The notes under the pieces were generated by a model. That model searched no databases, was not told where the DNA came from, and saw nothing but the letters and a program-made list of their open reading frames with translations. Positions 4,931 through 9,324 of a stretch of 64,000 nt of DNA are shown in pieces (position 1 is the first letter of the stretch; each line of letters opens with the position of its first letter). The position numbers and the translations under genes were made by a program. Source of the DNA: Patescibacteria group bacterium (GTDB lineage: Bacteria; Patescibacteriota; Microgenomatia; UBA1400; PJMF01); the NCBI GenBank assembly GCA_016861085.1, contig BOKR01000001.1:668081-732080 (forward strand). Direction: 5' to 3'.

Positions 4931-6286
4931 TTACAGCTTAATTTTCTTTGGCCGATCTGAAGATACCTTCCAATTATCACACATGCCATTCCAAGTTTGG
5001 GCATCCATGAGCCAGCCGTCATTCGCTTTGCCAACCTCTTCAAGTAATGCGTGCGTTACTTCCATAGCCCGCCTTGGATTCCTTTGTGCATACTCAAGTA
5101 TCCTTGGCACTAAATTCATTTTTTCTGATTGGAATGTTTCCAGCCTCATCCATGTATTACAACTCCTCATTTTCTCGTTTATCATTTGAACAATTAGCTC
5201 ATCATTCCATGCAAATACCCCATCTAAAACCTTTATTCCTGTGTTTTTAGTTTTCACCCTTGCCGGAGAAAAAACCTTTAGATAGACACCAACTTCTTGC
5301 AAACGAGCAATTAGCTTGTGGTCAGTGAGTGCATCAAGTGTTCTTTTTGCCTCTCTATTGTTTTGTATATCTGCTACTAAATATATATTTTGTGCATAAT
5401 CACCAAGTAAATTATGCACAACTTTCACCATTTCTGGTACAGTTTGTATTGCTTTTGCTCTTTTTACAGTACGGTCTACATTTCTTATAAACTGTTTCCT
5501 GTCCCTAAGAGATGGAATCGCACCTTCCTTTCTTGAGACCAGACTTCGAAGTGTCATAAGAATACCTTGCAAAAAAGTTTCTTTTGCTTGTGATCCTACA
5601 TATCTAGATTGTATTCTTTGCGCAATTGGAAATAGTGCTTCTAAACCCTCAGGGTCATCATCTTTCCGTCTATGGTTTACAACTGCTCGTAGCAAATTTT
5701 GCATAGGTTTACCACCAGTCTTCACAACCCTGGCATAATCAACCACAAATTGTGAATGTGCACCTGACATGCTTTTACGATCATAGATAAGGTGAAACCT
5801 TTCTATAAGTTCAACTAATCTACCCATGCTTTGACAAATCATTTGATCTATAGAACCACTCTTTAATAAACTTAAATCAAGAGGAATTACTAAATTGCCC
5901 CCCGACACCAACCTTTCATACATCTCAAACACCATTCCTGAATGTGTTGCCCCTTCTCCTGACTGATAAGGAATAACAGCATGTTCATGTTTTTTTAAGA
6001 GTGAAAATAAATCAGTTCTGTATTTAGAATTTTCTACTACTTCGGTATGGGCCGGACTACCCCCATGATTTTCTTGAAGATACATAAGCAGTTCTTCTGT
6101 CGTAAAATTTCCCAGCATCTCCCTAATTCTGACTTCATCAGGTTTTTCATAGTACCTAACACGCTTATTCTCAGCTTTTACACCAGCTTCATCAGGGTTT
6201 TTTCTGGAGGTTTCTATCCTCTGTGTAAATCTTTGCATAGCATCTTTCTGCCTATTACAGGCCTTTTTTGCGATTATATTCTGCAT
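4931..6286 (-). CDS. Hypothetical protein (451 aa), no recognisable domain. Local GC looks slightly higher than neighbours.
   Basis: Long ORF transcribed divergently from the 6374 gene. No Walker, HTH or catalytic motif recognised. Confidence 0.5.
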   Translation of the reverse strand: MQNIIAKKACNRQKDAMQRFTQRIETSRKNPDEAGVKAENKRVRYYEKPDEVRIREMLGNFTTEELLMYLQENHGGSPAHTEVVENSKYRTDLFSLLKKHEHAVIPYQSGEGATHSGMVFEMYERLVSGGNLVIPLDLSLLKSGSIDQMICQSMGRLVELIERFHLIYDRKSMSGAHSQFVVDYARVVKTGGKPMQNLLRAVVNHRRKDDDPEGLEALFPIAQRIQSRYVGSQAKETFLQGILMTLRSLVSRKEGAIPSLRDRKQFIRNVDRTVKRAKAIQTVPEMVKVVHNLLGDYAQNIYLVADIQNNREAKRTLDALTDHKLIARLQEVGVYLKVFSPARVKTKNTGIKVLDGVFAWNDELIVQMINEKMRSCNTWMRLETFQSEKMNLVPRILEYAQRNPRRAMEVTHALLEEVGKANDGWLMDAQTWNGMCDNWKVSSDRPKKIKL

Positions 6287-6322
6287 ATTTACTATGTACT
6301 TGACAACCTATTGTTACTTTAG

Positions 6323-6355
6323 TGTCAGAATAATGTCAGATATTTGACATATTGT
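6323..6355. promoter_or_regulatory. Three phased 11-bp direct repeats (TGTCAGAATAA / TGTCAGATATT / TGACATATTGT) in the divergent promoter region. Candidate operator for the adjacent OmpR-type winged-helix protein.
   Basis: Read directly. The 11-bp periodicity matches how OmpR/PhoB-family DNA-binding domains bind direct repeats. The repeats overlap a TTGACA at 6344-6349. A TGtTATATAAT-like -10 at 6353-6363 sits about 10 nt before the ATG at 6374. Confidence 0.45.
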
Positions 6356-6373
6356 TATATAATATGATCCATA

Positions 6374-7579
6374 ATGAAACAAGGACCAAGCATCCACCCT
6401 GAAACAATTGCAAAAATTAGTTCAAGGTGGATCCAAGCAATCAAAGCCCAAGAAAACATACTCTCTGTCTTTCCAAGAGGTGTGGCTGGGTATCGCCGAC
6501 TTGAAAGCCTAATTTCAGATCAAGAACTTCTCAAGAACAACTCAATAAATGTAGAAAAATTTGCTTTCTATTACTACCGAGTTGAACCAACATCTCCAGA
6601 TTTTATTACAACGTTACAAAACCTATTTCAGATTAAAAAGAAAATAGAAAATATTGATCAATGCATCCAAGAAATCAATAAAAAGTACACACAAAATCAA
6701 CAACACATCTTTCTTATTGCTTTTATTGATAGTTGGCTAAACAAGGAAACTACAATTTTACATTTGCTCAGCTTAGTATCAGATAGCTGTCCTCAAATCC
6801 AATTTTTATTGCTCACTGAAGAAAATATACATGACACCGAAAAAATAATTCTGCTTGGAAAATACCATCAGCTCTTTCAAAATATTAGTTACATTCCGCT
6901 CTACTCAAATGAAACGCTCCAATACTTTGTTACTGATTACAGCACCATACTTGAAAAGCCAATCTCAAAAGACCAAGCGCTGAAACTGCTTCAAGTTACA
7001 GGGAAACACATTGCACTGGTAAAAGAGGCTGTGCGATTACACTGTTTGTATGATGTTCCTTTTCAAGAAATTACTCAACAACTGAGCTATAAAATTAAAT
7101 TGAGCCAAATATGGAGTTCTTTTTCAAGAAAGGAACAAACGGTTTTCAACAAAATTTGGAACAACCAAGTACTAGAAACCCAAACTCTAAAAGAAACATA
7201 TATACATTTAAGAGACTTACAATGGTTTGAAGAAACTCCTGAAAAAATACTCTGCTCTGTACCAGGCTTTGAATACTTTATCACTCAAAAAACACCTGTA
7301 AAGCTACTACTACAACTCGGTCATCTCTATATCGGTGATACTATTGCGGATGATAAATTTACACAAAATGAAGCTAAACTTTTAACACTGTTCCTTTCTG
7401 GAACAAAAAATTTATACACAAAAGAGGAACTTTTTGAACAACTGTGGGACAACCCAGAAGAATATTCTGATTGGGCACTTGATAAATCACTCCATCGCCT
7501 GAGAACAAAACTCAATGAATTACAAGTAACTTCCCAAATAGTAACACTCAGGGGTAGGGGGTACTCGTGGCAAGCATAG
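6374..7579 (+). CDS. Uncharacterised protein with a C-terminal OmpR/PhoB-type winged-helix DNA-binding domain and an approx. 300-aa N-terminal domain of unknown type. No P-loop and no canonical receiver aspartates.
   Basis: The C-terminal 70 aa (LTLFLSGTKNLYTKEELFEQLWDNPEEYSDWALDKSLHRLRTKLNELQVTSQIVTLRGRGYSWQA) match the trans_reg_C pattern (…RLRKKL…TVRGVGY…). The N-terminal part is unassigned. Confidence 0.6.
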   Translation: MKQGPSIHPETIAKISSRWIQAIKAQENILSVFPRGVAGYRRLESLISDQELLKNNSINVEKFAFYYYRVEPTSPDFITTLQNLFQIKKKIENIDQCIQEINKKYTQNQQHIFLIAFIDSWLNKETTILHLLSLVSDSCPQIQFLLLTEENIHDTEKIILLGKYHQLFQNISYIPLYSNETLQYFVTDYSTILEKPISKDQALKLLQVTGKHIALVKEAVRLHCLYDVPFQEITQQLSYKIKLSQIWSSFSRKEQTVFNKIWNNQVLETQTLKETYIHLRDLQWFEETPEKILCSVPGFEYFITQKTPVKLLLQLGHLYIGDTIADDKFTQNEAKLLTLFLSGTKNLYTKEELFEQLWDNPEEYSDWALDKSLHRLRTKLNELQVTSQIVTLRGRGYSWQA

Positions 7580-9078
7580 AAAAAAGAACTACACTCTCTG
7601 AATTGTGGAATGCCGCTGATCTCTTACACAGACCAGAGCCACCACAACTTTTGACAAGTCTGTTACTTTCATTCAGAAAAAAAGGACTCATAGACGAAGC
7701 AACGCAATTATTTTTGTTTGATTCGTTGCCCTTGTACTATCTTTTAAAGTCAGATACTGAGTGTCTTAGTTTTTTTGGTGACACTCCAATGATTCCTTTA
7801 TTGGTACAGGCAGGTTTAGCAAGCCATTTTTTTAACACCCCAGAAAATTTGCCAGAAAAACAACAGAAACGTATTGACCAAATAGAATCCTACTTCACCG
7901 TTGGACCAAATGATATTGATCTAAAAATACCTGGTTTAAACAGCTCTAACTGGGAGGCCACGGTAGAATGGTTAACTAATAATTCTCAAAGTATTCAAAA
8001 AACTGAAGCAAAAGAAGAATACCTATGCACTGGCATAGCTATTTGGGATCAAGCACAACAAGTTGAATTTACTGATCGTAAAGTATATGAAAGAAATAAC
8101 TTACTTGAACAATCACCTGAAAAAACAAATGCAGTTCGCGCCACAGTGGTCAAAAATATCGACGGCAATCATGAAACACTTATAGTTATTATTTTAGAAC
8201 TTGGATTTTGTGAACAGAATGCTGTCACTTTAAAAACTTTCAAACCAGTTGCAACAATACATATTTCAAATATTCCGCAACATGACACTCGATTACAAAA
8301 GAATCCAAACTCCACATTGGCTCAAATAACCCCCAAACTGAGTGTACCTGAAACAACTGAAGCAGACTGTACTATAGAATATCCAGAAAACTTTGAAACT
8401 TTACTATTTGAAGAGTTACAATTACTCCTTGATCCGCAAAAACCACTAGAAAGTTTTGTTGCAGCAATTAGTTTTTTTAGAAAAATAAATGTTAAGTTTT
8501 CTTTAGCAAATAAACATATTGAGAGAAGAAGACAAAAATTAGACATCACTGATGCGGAATATGACCTAGTAGTCATAAATCCATTTATTTCTTTTTATTC
8601 ACTTTTTAATACCTTTTTGAATGACCTATCAGAACCAATAAAATTAACCCAAGAATATGATATTGCCCGCTTCTCAAGCGATTTAGCTCTTATTGCAGTT
8701 GCTGTTGGACCAAAAGAATTTAGTAAAGTCCTAATTTCAACAGGATTAGTAAACTATATTGAAAGAAATATTGCAGGCTTTCTAAAACAAGGGATTGAAA
8801 CAAACCCTTTTTGTAAAGGTCTTTTATTTGAAAAGACTCACATAGCCATCAAAAAAAACGAAAATAAAATAAAAGCAAGCTTATTTCCATTCCCAGAGCC
8901 AAATAATTTTGGCAAACAAGAAACACACCCTCTTCCTTGGGATGGTCTGACTGCTCTCATTCAGTTACTCAAGGAGAAAACAGAAATTGAACTTTCACAA
9001 TACCCACTGCTTTGTTTTATCAACCTCTTTTGCGCCCCTTTTTTTGAAGATACTCAAGACCAACAAAACGTTTACTAA
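7567..9078 (+). CDS. Hypothetical protein (503 aa), translationally coupled to the upstream winged-helix gene
   Basis: GTG start at 7567 overlaps the upstream stop (7577-7579) by 13 nt. A G-rich SD-like run (GGGTAGGGGG) lies just upstream. No recognisable domain. Confidence 0.5.
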   Translation: MASIEKRTTLSELWNAADLLHRPEPPQLLTSLLLSFRKKGLIDEATQLFLFDSLPLYYLLKSDTECLSFFGDTPMIPLLVQAGLASHFFNTPENLPEKQQKRIDQIESYFTVGPNDIDLKIPGLNSSNWEATVEWLTNNSQSIQKTEAKEEYLCTGIAIWDQAQQVEFTDRKVYERNNLLEQSPEKTNAVRATVVKNIDGNHETLIVIILELGFCEQNAVTLKTFKPVATIHISNIPQHDTRLQKNPNSTLAQITPKLSVPETTEADCTIEYPENFETLLFEELQLLLDPQKPLESFVAAISFFRKINVKFSLANKHIERRRQKLDITDAEYDLVVINPFISFYSLFNTFLNDLSEPIKLTQEYDIARFSSDLALIAVAVGPKEFSKVLISTGLVNYIERNIAGFLKQGIETNPFCKGLLFEKTHIAIKKNENKIKASLFPFPEPNNFGKQETHPLPWDGLTALIQLLKEKTEIELSQYPLLCFINLFCAPFFEDTQDQQNVY

Positions 9079-9081
9079 CTT

Positions 9082-9324
9082 TTAAGATTCGTCCTTCAGC
9101 TTCCTAATTTTTGCATCGAGCTGATACCCCTTGTGTTGGTATATTTTATCAAGAGGATCTGGGCTGGCAAACTCTTTCTTTAGAAGAGTTTTACGCTCAT
9201 TCATGGCTTTACTCAGCGATTGATTCATTTGTTGAGCTCGTTTTTCCCCGAATGAGGTTGGTTTTGGTGTTACTGACTTTCGTGTAGCTGAACCTAAACT
9301 CAACAATGGTTTTAAAAATTTCAC
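9082..9324 (-). CDS. Hypothetical small basic protein (80 aa)
   Basis: ORF overlapping the stop of the S51 peptidase gene by 4 nt. K/R-rich, no known domain. Confidence 0.35.
   Translation of the reverse strand: MKFLKPLLSLGSATRKSVTPKPTSFGEKRAQQMNQSLSKAMNERKTLLKKEFASPDPLDKIYQHKGYQLDAKIRKLKDES

Follow-up and report, generated by a model that had tools for sequence, protein, structure and literature searches.

At positions 4931 to 9078 of the window, the 64-kb stretch of Patescibacteria DNA analysed here, lie three genes with a short divergent promoter among them (Table 1). One codes for a 451-aa protein, and the two that diverge from it code for a 401-aa regulator and its 503-aa partner.

Table 1. 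Features of the locus, in window coordinates
Feature	Position	Strand	Remarks
451-aa ORF	4931-6286	-	Divergent to the regulator; no known domain
Candidate -10 elements of the 451 gene	6273-6283	-	TATAAT 6278-6273, CAGAAT 6283-6278
Candidate operator array	6299-6354	+	Five 11-bp phased units, TG(T/A)C core
-10 hexamer of the 401/503 operon, TATAAT	6358-6363	+	Aligned T69 A70. A72 A73 T74 invariant
401-aa regulator ORF	6374-7579	+	AAA+-like domain without Walker A, lid, small winged helix, OmpR/PhoB DNA-binding domain
P-loop-NTPase/AAA+-like core, (beta-alpha)5	6455-6949	+	Residues 28-192
Helical lid, then small winged helix	6968-7288	+	Residues 199-305
OmpR/PhoB-type DNA-binding domain (beta-hairpin and winged helix-turn-helix)	7304-7573	+	Residues 311-400
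Translational-coupling junction	7551-7579	+	Shine-Dalgarno (SD) sequence, GTG 7567, TAG of the 401 gene 7577-7579, 13-nt overlap
503-aa partner ORF	7567-9078	+	GTG start; no known domain

The gene trio and its neighbourhood

All three open reading frames are present where the first-pass annotation had placed them, and on sequence comparison they are real genes, because their orthologues keep many invariant columns at about 28-69% identity. Orthologues of the 451-aa protein (27-64% identity) have 32 invariant columns and an invariant G-x-G-A-[TS] motif at residues 110-114. In the 503-aa protein, which is predicted to be cytoplasmic, conservation is strongest in the block IHISNIPxHDTRLQxxPNSxLA (residues 231-252). 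As had been suspected from the letters, neither protein has a recognised motif: searches of both against Pfam, NCBIfam, PADLOC, PHROGs and PDB sequences returned nothing.

The order of genes at the locus is DUF2130, the trio, an 80-aa gene, an S51 peptidase, RecA and RNase Y. Synteny and co-occurrence were followed in the six Woesebacteria-like lineages where the region can be read (W, L003, L009, L012, L013/L016 and L014/L015), and in all six the trio has the same order, orientation and neighbours, with no variation in presence or absence. Thus the view that the three genes form one unit holds, while the statement that they do not sit within a conserved syntenic neighbourhood has to be withdrawn. 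It is to be noted that the trio is only about 28-69% identical between lineages, while RecA, RNase Y and DUF2130 beside it reach 80-92%. Although their position is fixed, the 451- and 503-aa proteins change several times as fast as the housekeeping proteins around them, and no explanation tried accounts for this pattern. In L009 and L011 the regulator gene is frameshifted and the 451 and 503 genes are intact; therefore, the two orphans can persist without an intact regulator, unless the frameshift is an assembly error.

The regulator and its relatives

The C-terminal OmpR/PhoB winged helix noticed at first reading is confirmed by a Trans_reg_C match at residues 329-398 (E 7.6e-13). What then precedes it? 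In a structure model built from only five sequences (pLDDT 76.7), an AAA+-like base, a lid and a winged helix, arranged as in ORC/Cdc6, RuvB and clamp-loader delta, come before the OmpR domain. The model has the alpha-beta-alpha base and the helical lid by which AAA+ proteins are known, and its Foldseek matches to AAA+ structures are weak (E about 3e-3 to 3e-2). Its predicted fold and domain order over residues 28-305 are like those of ORC/Cdc6, RuvB, the archaeal Walker-type ATPase PAB2304 (2qen) and clamp-loader delta, and a Walker-B-like acidic residue and a lid arginine are retained. Of 126 family members, 114 have an acidic D/E at position 119 and likewise 114 have R221 in the lid, the equivalence of these two positions to Walker B and sensor 2 being drawn from their place in the model only. 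The lid also carries a family motif, CGGHxWL(I/V)KEAxR. Unlike those AAA+ proteins, the regulator shows no detectable sequence homology to them, is fused to an OmpR domain and belongs to a family that has lost Walker A throughout: the position reads FPRGVAGYRR in the 401-aa protein and P-K-S-D-R-x-R-R in the family consensus, and GxxxxGK[ST] is absent from 125 of 126 members, the sole match to the pattern lying elsewhere in the protein. Because it has no P-loop, the module would be a structural rather than a catalytic AAA+ domain, as in clamp-loader delta.

The first-pass annotation had described the N-terminal part as neither a receiver, nor a BTAD, nor a P-loop domain. The first two denials stand, since none of 100 family members scanned matches Response_reg or BTAD (AAA_35 appears weakly in two of the 100), but the third has to be qualified, because the fold is AAA+/P-loop-like even though Walker A is missing family-wide. 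On the structure model, the 401-aa protein would be a one-component-type regulator in which an AAA+-derived module that has lost Walker A takes the place of the phospho-receiver. Like OmpR/PhoB response regulators, it joins an N-terminal sensor module to a C-terminal Trans_reg_C DNA-binding domain, but it has no receiver, no phospho-acceptor Asp and no adjacent kinase, and about 300 residues of AAA+-like base, lid and winged helix stand there instead. In SARPs an N-terminal DNA-binding domain precedes BTAD, and AfsR adds TPRs and a functional NB-ARC that keeps Walker A; compared with such SARP/AfsR-type and STAND regulators (AfsR, EmbR), the 401-aa protein has its DNA-binding domain at the other end and lacks BTAD, TPR and Walker A. 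Use of an OmpR-type domain without phosphorylation is shared with ToxR/CadC-type proteins, and the DNA-binding domains of CadC and ToxR are among the structural matches. ToxR and CadC, however, are membrane-anchored proteins with an N-terminal DNA-binding domain and a periplasmic sensor, while the 401-aa protein is soluble and has this domain at its C-terminus.

A profile search with the N-terminal part collected 579 clusters of the same architecture, almost all of 370-430 aa. Of the 15 regulator genes that were inspected, 13 are followed by a gene that overlaps or closely abuts them and has no Pfam match, and across the family unrelated orphan families (440-973 aa) take the place of this coupled partner.

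The divergent promoter and the coupled junction

The divergent promoter is 87-135 bp long across loci, and in it the candidate operator array directly abuts the -10 hexamer of the 401/503 operon. Its units are CTTGAC (6299-6304), a degenerate one at about 6313, GTGTCAGAATA (6322-6332), ATGTCAGATAT (6333-6343) and TTGACATATTG (6344-6354), with a G recurring at 6302, 6313, 6324, 6335 and 6346. Four of these Gs do not vary among the six orthologous loci, and the one at 6335 is G in five of the six. The five 11-bp phased units are kept although the proteins of these loci are only 37-69% identical, which bears out the first reading of the shared promoter as one with phased repeats that would suit an OmpR-type binder. 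In pho boxes, too, direct repeats with a TGTCA core and an 11-bp period stand in place of the -35 element, and the present array is like them in all these respects; it differs from OmpR/PhoB sites in having five phased units against two to four half-sites. TTGACA-like units in the array are confounded with the -35 consensus of sigma-70. This is the only exact TGTCA-N6-TGTCA in the window, and when one mismatch is allowed the motif is not enriched (7 observed, 7.4 expected), so that no regulon is visible beyond the locus. In L014 the divergent regulator/451 pair has been duplicated, the second pair of paralogues being again divergent and having GTCA motifs in its intergenic region, and related heptamers, TG(A/T)CAG(A/G), occur at or near -35 upstream of distant family members.

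In the 401/503 operon the array takes up the place of the -35 hexamer, and for this reason no good one is present. From the -10 hexamer it is 10 nt to the ATG, so that from the putative transcription start the leader would be very short or absent. On the other strand, the true start of the 451 gene is probably Met17, with a product of about 435 aa, because the annotated ATG (6286) lies upstream of both candidate -10 hexamers and the orthologues start at or after Met17: the closest of them (P0012) starts at the Met17 equivalent (ATG 6238-6236), and distant ones start further downstream. The ATTATA element of this promoter is also found in L009 and L003.

At the other end of the regulator gene, the SD sequence GGGGTAGGGGG (7551-7561) lies within the R-G-R-G-Y codons, with 5 nt between it and the GTG. 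L003, L009, L012, L014 and L016 share the SD and the 13-nt overlap, and in them the 503 gene begins with an ATG at the corresponding position; the arrangement behind the proposed translational coupling, with its G-rich SD, is therefore conserved in all six loci. OmpR/PhoB regulators differ in that the locus described here consistently has such a translationally coupled partner.

Possible mode of action and competing readings

How might these parts work together? With only slight confidence above an even chance, we favour the reading that the trio is a regulatory module peculiar to one Woesebacteria-like clade of Patescibacteria, passed on vertically and evolving fast, in which an autoregulated one-component regulator oligomerises on the array and acts with a co-translated partner. 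The AAA+-like module would serve as a scaffold for oligomerisation and signal reception, not as a motor, and several protomers would bind head-to-tail on the five TG(T/A)C units at 11-bp spacing. The bound array would fill the divergent promoter, overlapping the -35 regions of both promoters, and binding might thus control the regulator's own operon and the divergent 451-aa gene. For the operon, activation seems probable, because a -10 element is present in its promoter and a -35 element is not. The 503-aa protein, which would be made in fixed proportion through the 13-nt overlap, may be the bound partner of the regulator, as a modulator or as the signal input; to see the two orphans as effector or sensor proteins, as was suggested at first reading, is a guess.

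Another possibility is that the trio is a conflict or anti-phage defence system, or a symbiont-host module, with the wHTH/AAA+-like protein as sensor or regulator and the fast-diversifying 503- and 451-aa proteins as effectors. The low identity of the module genes beside the housekeeping ones would suit this, as would the replacement of the coupled partner by unrelated orphans, and one family member (in L019) lies near PLDc_2, HTH_3 and Cap15_CD_rec genes. We consider it unlikely, however: PADLOC recognises none of the three proteins (E <= 1), the sole PHROGs match is to a generic DNA-binding domain, no nuclease, toxin or transmembrane signature can be recognised, no viral relatives were found, and the place of the module among housekeeping genes is fixed in all six lineages. 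The same fixed flanks largely refute the first-pass annotation's proposal of a self-regulated accessory cassette acquired horizontally, to which we give very little credence. It is true that the plus-strand pair is AT-richer, as claimed (GC 0.351 for the 401 gene and 0.347 for the 503 gene, where 37 long ORFs average 0.375, sd 0.018; z -1.4 and -1.6), that the proteins have very few homologues in 5.8 billion proteins, and that no relatives turned up among the GTDB species representatives. But the slight difference in GC is inside the normal range of the window, GC3 departs from the window mean by no more than 1.2 sd (z +0.4 and -1.1), there are no viral matches, and the ORFs and called genes on either side of the block include no integrase, repeat or tRNA boundary. 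A mobile or accessory island would be expected to vary in presence, to have an atypical composition and to bring mobility genes or viral relatives, and none of these marks was found; the module is inherited vertically.

Since the regulator fold resembles ORC/Cdc6, RuvB and clamp-loader subunits, and oriC has arrays of low-affinity DnaA boxes that five 11-bp phased sites recall, it can also be asked whether an ORC/DnaA-like oligomer forms on an iteron-like array for a chromosome-structural or initiator-like purpose rather than ordinary transcription control. This is highly improbable, in view of an array that sits in a divergent promoter against a -10 hexamer, a GC skew that makes no switch here beyond the effect of gene orientation, the absent Walker A, and a DNA-binding domain of the kind with which transcription factors of the OmpR/PhoB family contact RNA polymerase. 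Least probable, to the point of being almost negligible, is an ordinary two-component response regulator with its kinase elsewhere. The C-terminal domain does match PhoB, CreB, RppA and similar models best, but it falls well short of every equivalog cut-off (35.7 bits against 270) and matches over the last 70 residues only. An ordinary receiver with an adjacent kinase, the plain outcome that had been foreseen at first reading, was looked for and rejected: besides the lack of Response_reg in the family, no locus has a histidine kinase next to the module, and none is among the called genes of L001, L003, L009 and L012.

If the regulatory reading is followed beyond this locus, the 401-aa family might be a large unnamed class of signal-transduction proteins, in which the receiver has been swapped for a Walker-A-less AAA+ module and an obligate co-translated, fast-diversifying partner supplies the specificity of input; this we put forward tentatively, as a rather doubtful generalisation. 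Such a class would probably be concentrated in Patescibacteria, whose genomes are very small (here about 1.2 Mb) and whose regulation is, to our knowledge, almost unstudied. With at least 579 clusters of Walker-A-less AAA+/OmpR fusions, usually with a coupled orphan, it could be one of the main classes of transcription factors in these bacteria. With its obligate partner it would amount to a regulatory architecture of two proteins that is neither a one- nor a two-component system. The locus could also show by what means a dead ATPase scaffold stands in for phosphorylation in switching an OmpR-type domain. The short, conserved five-site candidate operator offers a testable entry point.

A three-gene module at a fixed locus

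The three ORFs of 451, 401 and 503 aa are present exactly as the first-pass annotation had stated them (locus tags BroJett025_06430 and BroJett025_06450 in the source, a 'Patescibacteria group bacterium' MAG with a contig of 1.17 Mb, whose closest relative with a name is a Candidatus Woesebacteria MAG), and the OmpR-type winged helix that it had read at the C-terminus of the 401-aa protein, here called the regulator, is recovered by Pfam as Trans_reg_C at residues 329-398 (E 7.6e-13). For the 451- and 503-aa proteins, nothing significant was found in Pfam, and NCBIfam, PADLOC, PHROGs and PDB sequences gave no usable match with either single sequences or profiles; by Pfam, the neighbours are DUF2130, NUDIX and Peptidase_S51 genes. 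That the plus-strand pair is AT-richer than its surroundings is true but trivial: GC is 0.351 for the 401 gene and 0.347 for the 503 gene (z -1.4 and -1.6 against 37 long ORFs of the window, mean 0.375, sd 0.018) and 0.381 for the 451 gene, and GC3 of the module genes is not deviant.

Homologues of the module are very rare. Among 5.8 billion proteins, the search found four homologues of the 401-aa protein, at 53% and ~25% identity, another four of the 503-aa protein, at 65-40%, and a single one of the 451-aa protein, at 64%, and neither pattern scans of GTDB species representatives nor IMG/VR viral contigs revealed any relative of the 503- or 451-aa protein. The block had been described as lying outside any conserved syntenic neighbourhood, which is contradicted by the common layout of six orthologous loci. 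Upstream of the trio are genes for a UvrD/PD-(D/E)XK helicase and a NUDIX protein, a small ORF and a DUF2130 gene, followed by the 451-like gene on the minus strand and, facing it on the plus strand in each conserved locus, the 401-like and 503-like genes; downstream come an ORF of 74-80 aa and genes for Peptidase_S51, RecA, RNase Y, SecG, SBP_bac_5, PspC and FemAB. Because every long-enough contig with a homologue keeps this one layout (L001/L002, which are one organism, that of the window; L003; L009; L012; L013/L016; and the JGI loci L014/L015), the block does have a conserved syntenic neighbourhood. Identity to the window is 89-90% for RecA, 80-92% for RNase Y and 83-86% for DUF2130 in the flanks, and 28-64% for the 451, 40-69% for the 401 and 37-65% for the 503 gene product; judged by these identities, the module genes are fast-evolving at a fixed locus.

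Features of the module, of the regulator model and of related loci (nucleotide positions are those of the window unless a locus is named)
Feature	Position	Strand	Basis	Remark
451-aa ORF	4931-6286	-	ORF call	
401-aa ORF, regulator	6374-7579	+	ORF call	
503-aa ORF	7567-9078	+	ORF call	GTG start
Array unit 1, CTTGAC	6299-6304	+	sequence	
Array unit 2, degenerate	around 6313	+	sequence	
Array unit 3, GTGTCAGAATA	from 6322	+		
Array unit 4, ATGTCAGATAT	from 6333	+		
Array unit 5, TTGACATATTG	from 6344	+		
-10 of 401/503 promoter, TATAAT	6358-6363	+		ATG at 6374
Candidate -10 of 451 promoter	6278-6273 (TATAAT) or 6283-6278 (CAGAAT)	-		
Small ORF of 69-75 aa	L001:6968-7195; window equivalent between 3262 and 3589			called at equal position
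N-terminal helix	residues 9-24 of regulator		AlphaFold2 model	
(beta-alpha)5 core	residues 28-192 of regulator		AlphaFold2 model	
Helical bundle	residues 199-262 of regulator		AlphaFold2 model	
Small winged helix	residues 270-305 of regulator		AlphaFold2 model	
Beta-hairpin	residues 311-320 of regulator		AlphaFold2 model	
OmpR-type wHTH	residues 331-400 of regulator		AlphaFold2 model	
Regulator (450 aa), then gene of at least 459 aa	L008			4-nt overlap
Regulator and partner, 422 + 545 aa	L017			4-nt overlap
Regulator and partner, 421 + 627 aa	L018			8-nt overlap
Regulator and partner, 417 + 577 aa	L019			11-nt overlap; divergent 543-aa orphan
Second regulator paralogue (partial, 324 aa), then 440-aa orphan	L016:3-2299			1-nt overlap
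Regulator and partner, 379 + 973 aa	L021			also 380 aa, then four orphans of ~300 aa

The regulator and its family

The regulator was modelled by AlphaFold2 from a five-sequence alignment (mean pLDDT 76.7, pTM 0.62). Foldseek matches of the model are weak, namely ORC/Cdc6 (7jgr_A, E 2.9e-3), RuvB (1in8, 3pfi), the Pyrococcus Walker-type ATPase 2qen (TMq 0.36), clamp-loader delta and RFC/Elg1. Because model and matches agree, the N-terminal 300 residues are assigned as a predicted AAA+-type module of base, lid and winged helix, and the earlier judgement that this part is not a canonical receiver is sustained.

An exhaustive HMMER run with a profile of the N-terminal residues 1-322 (clusters at 50% identity) retrieved 579 clusters at E <= 1e-3 and 361 at E <= 1e-10, almost all of 370-430 aa. 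Trans_reg_C was detected in all the 100 members scanned, Response_reg and BTAD in none, and AAA_35 weakly in only two. The family lacks a Walker A motif, the sole match among 126 members falling elsewhere in the protein; the consensus at the P-loop position is P-K-S-D-R-x-R-R, and both an acidic residue (D or E) at position 119, the end of beta-3, and R221 in the lid motif CGGHxWLxKEAxR are kept in 114 of these 126. Thus read, the N-terminal module is predicted to be a pseudo-ATPase or, failing that, to bind nucleotides in a non-canonical way. No Pfam model exists for this domain, and a literature search found no paper on a Walker-A-less AAA+/OmpR fusion, on the family size or on the rule of coupled orphan partners. 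We see in it a one-component regulator of the OmpR family, set apart by a new input module and a putatively obligate partner; the DNA-binding domain itself is ordinary. The module is real, conserved and testable, and is confined to an uncultivated clade.

A phased array between the divergent genes

Phased repeats had been noticed in the shared promoter, and their period is indeed conserved over six orthologous regions: in the alignment, G is invariant at window positions 6302, 6313, 6324 and 6346 and is kept in five of the six at 6335, so spaced as to give an exact 11-nt period, and the -10 hexamer of the 401/503 promoter is invariant at TA.AAT. OmpR/PhoB domains use an 11-bp direct-repeat period, and the TGTCA core and AT-rich spacer are similar to the pho box of E. 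coli. The strongest evidence that the array is functional is this conservation of non-coding DNA between genomes that share no more than 37-69% identity in their module proteins. The 401/503 promoter lacks a -35 hexamer (GTCAGA, with three matches of six), and the array fills the place where one would lie, so this promoter may be activator-dependent. Relative to the likely 451 promoter, unit 1 of the array falls near -36. It is to be noted that the annotated ATG of the 451 ORF (6286) is upstream of both candidate -10 hexamers on the minus strand, and that in the closest orthologue (P0012) the start corresponds to Met17; Met17 (ATG at 6238; window 6236-6286 region) is therefore the more probable start. 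Distant orthologues start later, and no orthologue has anything that matches the first 16 codons.

Exact TGTCA-N6-TGTCA occurs only in the array within the 64-kb window. With one mismatch there are 7 matches against 7.4 expected, which is no enrichment, so that the window reveals no other members of a regulon. Heptamers of the type TG(A/T)CAG(A/G) at or near -35 of the distant members L017, L018 and L019 hint at related sites, though they are confounded with the TTGACA consensus. An inverted repeat with 18-nt arms at 6392-6432 (+), just inside the 5' coding end of the regulator gene (-15.9 kcal/mol, z -3.1), is only weak in the nearest relative and missing from more distant orthologues; it was rejected as a conserved element and is probably not functional.

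Coupled partners and a possible mode of action

The claimed overlap of GTG start and upstream stop with a G-rich Shine-Dalgarno (SD) sequence is found as described, the order being GGGGTAGGGGG (7551-7561), GTACTC, GTG (7567) and the TAG of the 401 gene (7577-7579), with 13 nt of overlap. All six orthologous loci have the start of the 503-like gene 13 nt ahead of the regulator stop, with GTG in the window and ATG at the homologous position in the others, and the SD, of the AGAGGAAGGGGG type, lies within the conserved R-G-R/K-G-Y codons of the wing. Across the wider family, a coupled or abutting partner gene accompanies 13 of the 15 regulator genes inspected, by our count; the exceptions are L004, where LGT is next, and the second L014 copy, for which the inspection did not extend downstream. 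The partners in L008, L017, L018 and L019 are mutually homologous (23-48% identity in four of six pairwise comparisons). Kinship of the 503 family with these, with the 440-aa protein of L016 or with the 973-aa protein of L021 was not detected (hhalign probability <= 1.3%); the L016 orphan is also unrelated to 451 and to the L008/L017 partner families, and no credible Pfam match was obtained for partners of the wider family.

In L014/L015, a second pair, a 378-aa regulator paralogue (-) facing a 413-aa 451-paralogue (+), lies directly upstream of the main trio (L014:520-4168, also L015). Together with the constant divergent arrangement, duplication of the two genes as a unit argues for a functional tie between the regulator and the 451-like gene. 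Over seven sequences, the 451 family shows 32 invariant columns, and its motif G-x-G-A-[TS] at residues 110-114 is invariant. A suspicion that it is a second AAA+-like or degenerate P-loop protein, raised by this motif together with hhhhD and NPRRA, found no support in hhalign against the N-terminal family of the regulator (probability < 1%) and is speculative.

How might such a module work? With moderate confidence, we propose that the regulator is a soluble, kinase-independent protein of OmpR type which would bind the array and control both divergent promoters, presumably with a positive sign at that of 401/503, and that its AAA+-derived module would drive oligomerisation along the five phased sites, much as DnaA and other AAA+ proteins that bind DNA are assembled on phased boxes. 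The 503-aa protein, stoichiometrically co-translated, might bind the regulator as a modulator or an input subunit, a role that we put forward with much lower confidence.

The main alternative, a defence or conflict module, would account for the fast evolution of the module genes and for the swapping of partners across the family, and one distant member adjoins PLDc_2 and Cap15-like genes: the stretch L019:8180-11254, downstream of its regulator/partner pair, contains genes for PLDc_2, a 545-aa orphan, HTH_3 and Cap15_CD_rec, which looks like a defence-island context. However, the module has no PADLOC match and shows neither mobility nor variable presence, and we regard this alternative as unlikely. 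Horizontal acquisition as a cassette is essentially refuted, transfer of the trio being ruled out by conserved synteny together with GC3, and the accessory cassette suggested in the first-pass annotation fails on the same fixed synteny and normal GC3. An initiator-like or structural role is hard to reconcile with the promoter context and is very unlikely. The idea of a plain response regulator is refuted: a receiver at the N-terminus is ruled out by the structure model and by the lack of a Response_reg match in 100 relatives, and NCBIfam response-regulator models cover only the ~70 last residues, far under their cut-offs (PhoB, 35.7 bits against 270).

Several minor observations concern the related loci. 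The 92-bp intergenic region of the second pair in L014 contains GTCA motifs. An LGT and DksA/TraR zinc-finger gene pair follows distant regulators in L004:4055-5233 (directly) and L021:9786-10938 (after the four orphans), which may be a recurrent association. A frameshifting deletion between ...QNI(H)Y and PLYS... divides the regulator orthologue of a Candidatus Woesebacteria MAG (GCA_018001655.1; L009:4402-5600) into ORFs of 199 and 182 aa, with the 451 and 503 orthologues intact; GCA_020047555.1 (L011:15-740) has a matching downstream ORF structure. Either this is a true pseudogene, or the two assemblies have an error in common. A small ORF without Pfam match lies between the NUDIX and DUF2130 genes in L001, L002, L009 and L012. 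An 80-aa ORF at 9082-9324 (-), also without Pfam match, shares 4 nt with the start of the S51 peptidase gene; because it is conserved at the same position in all related loci (56-66% identity), it is, by this conservation, a real small protein.
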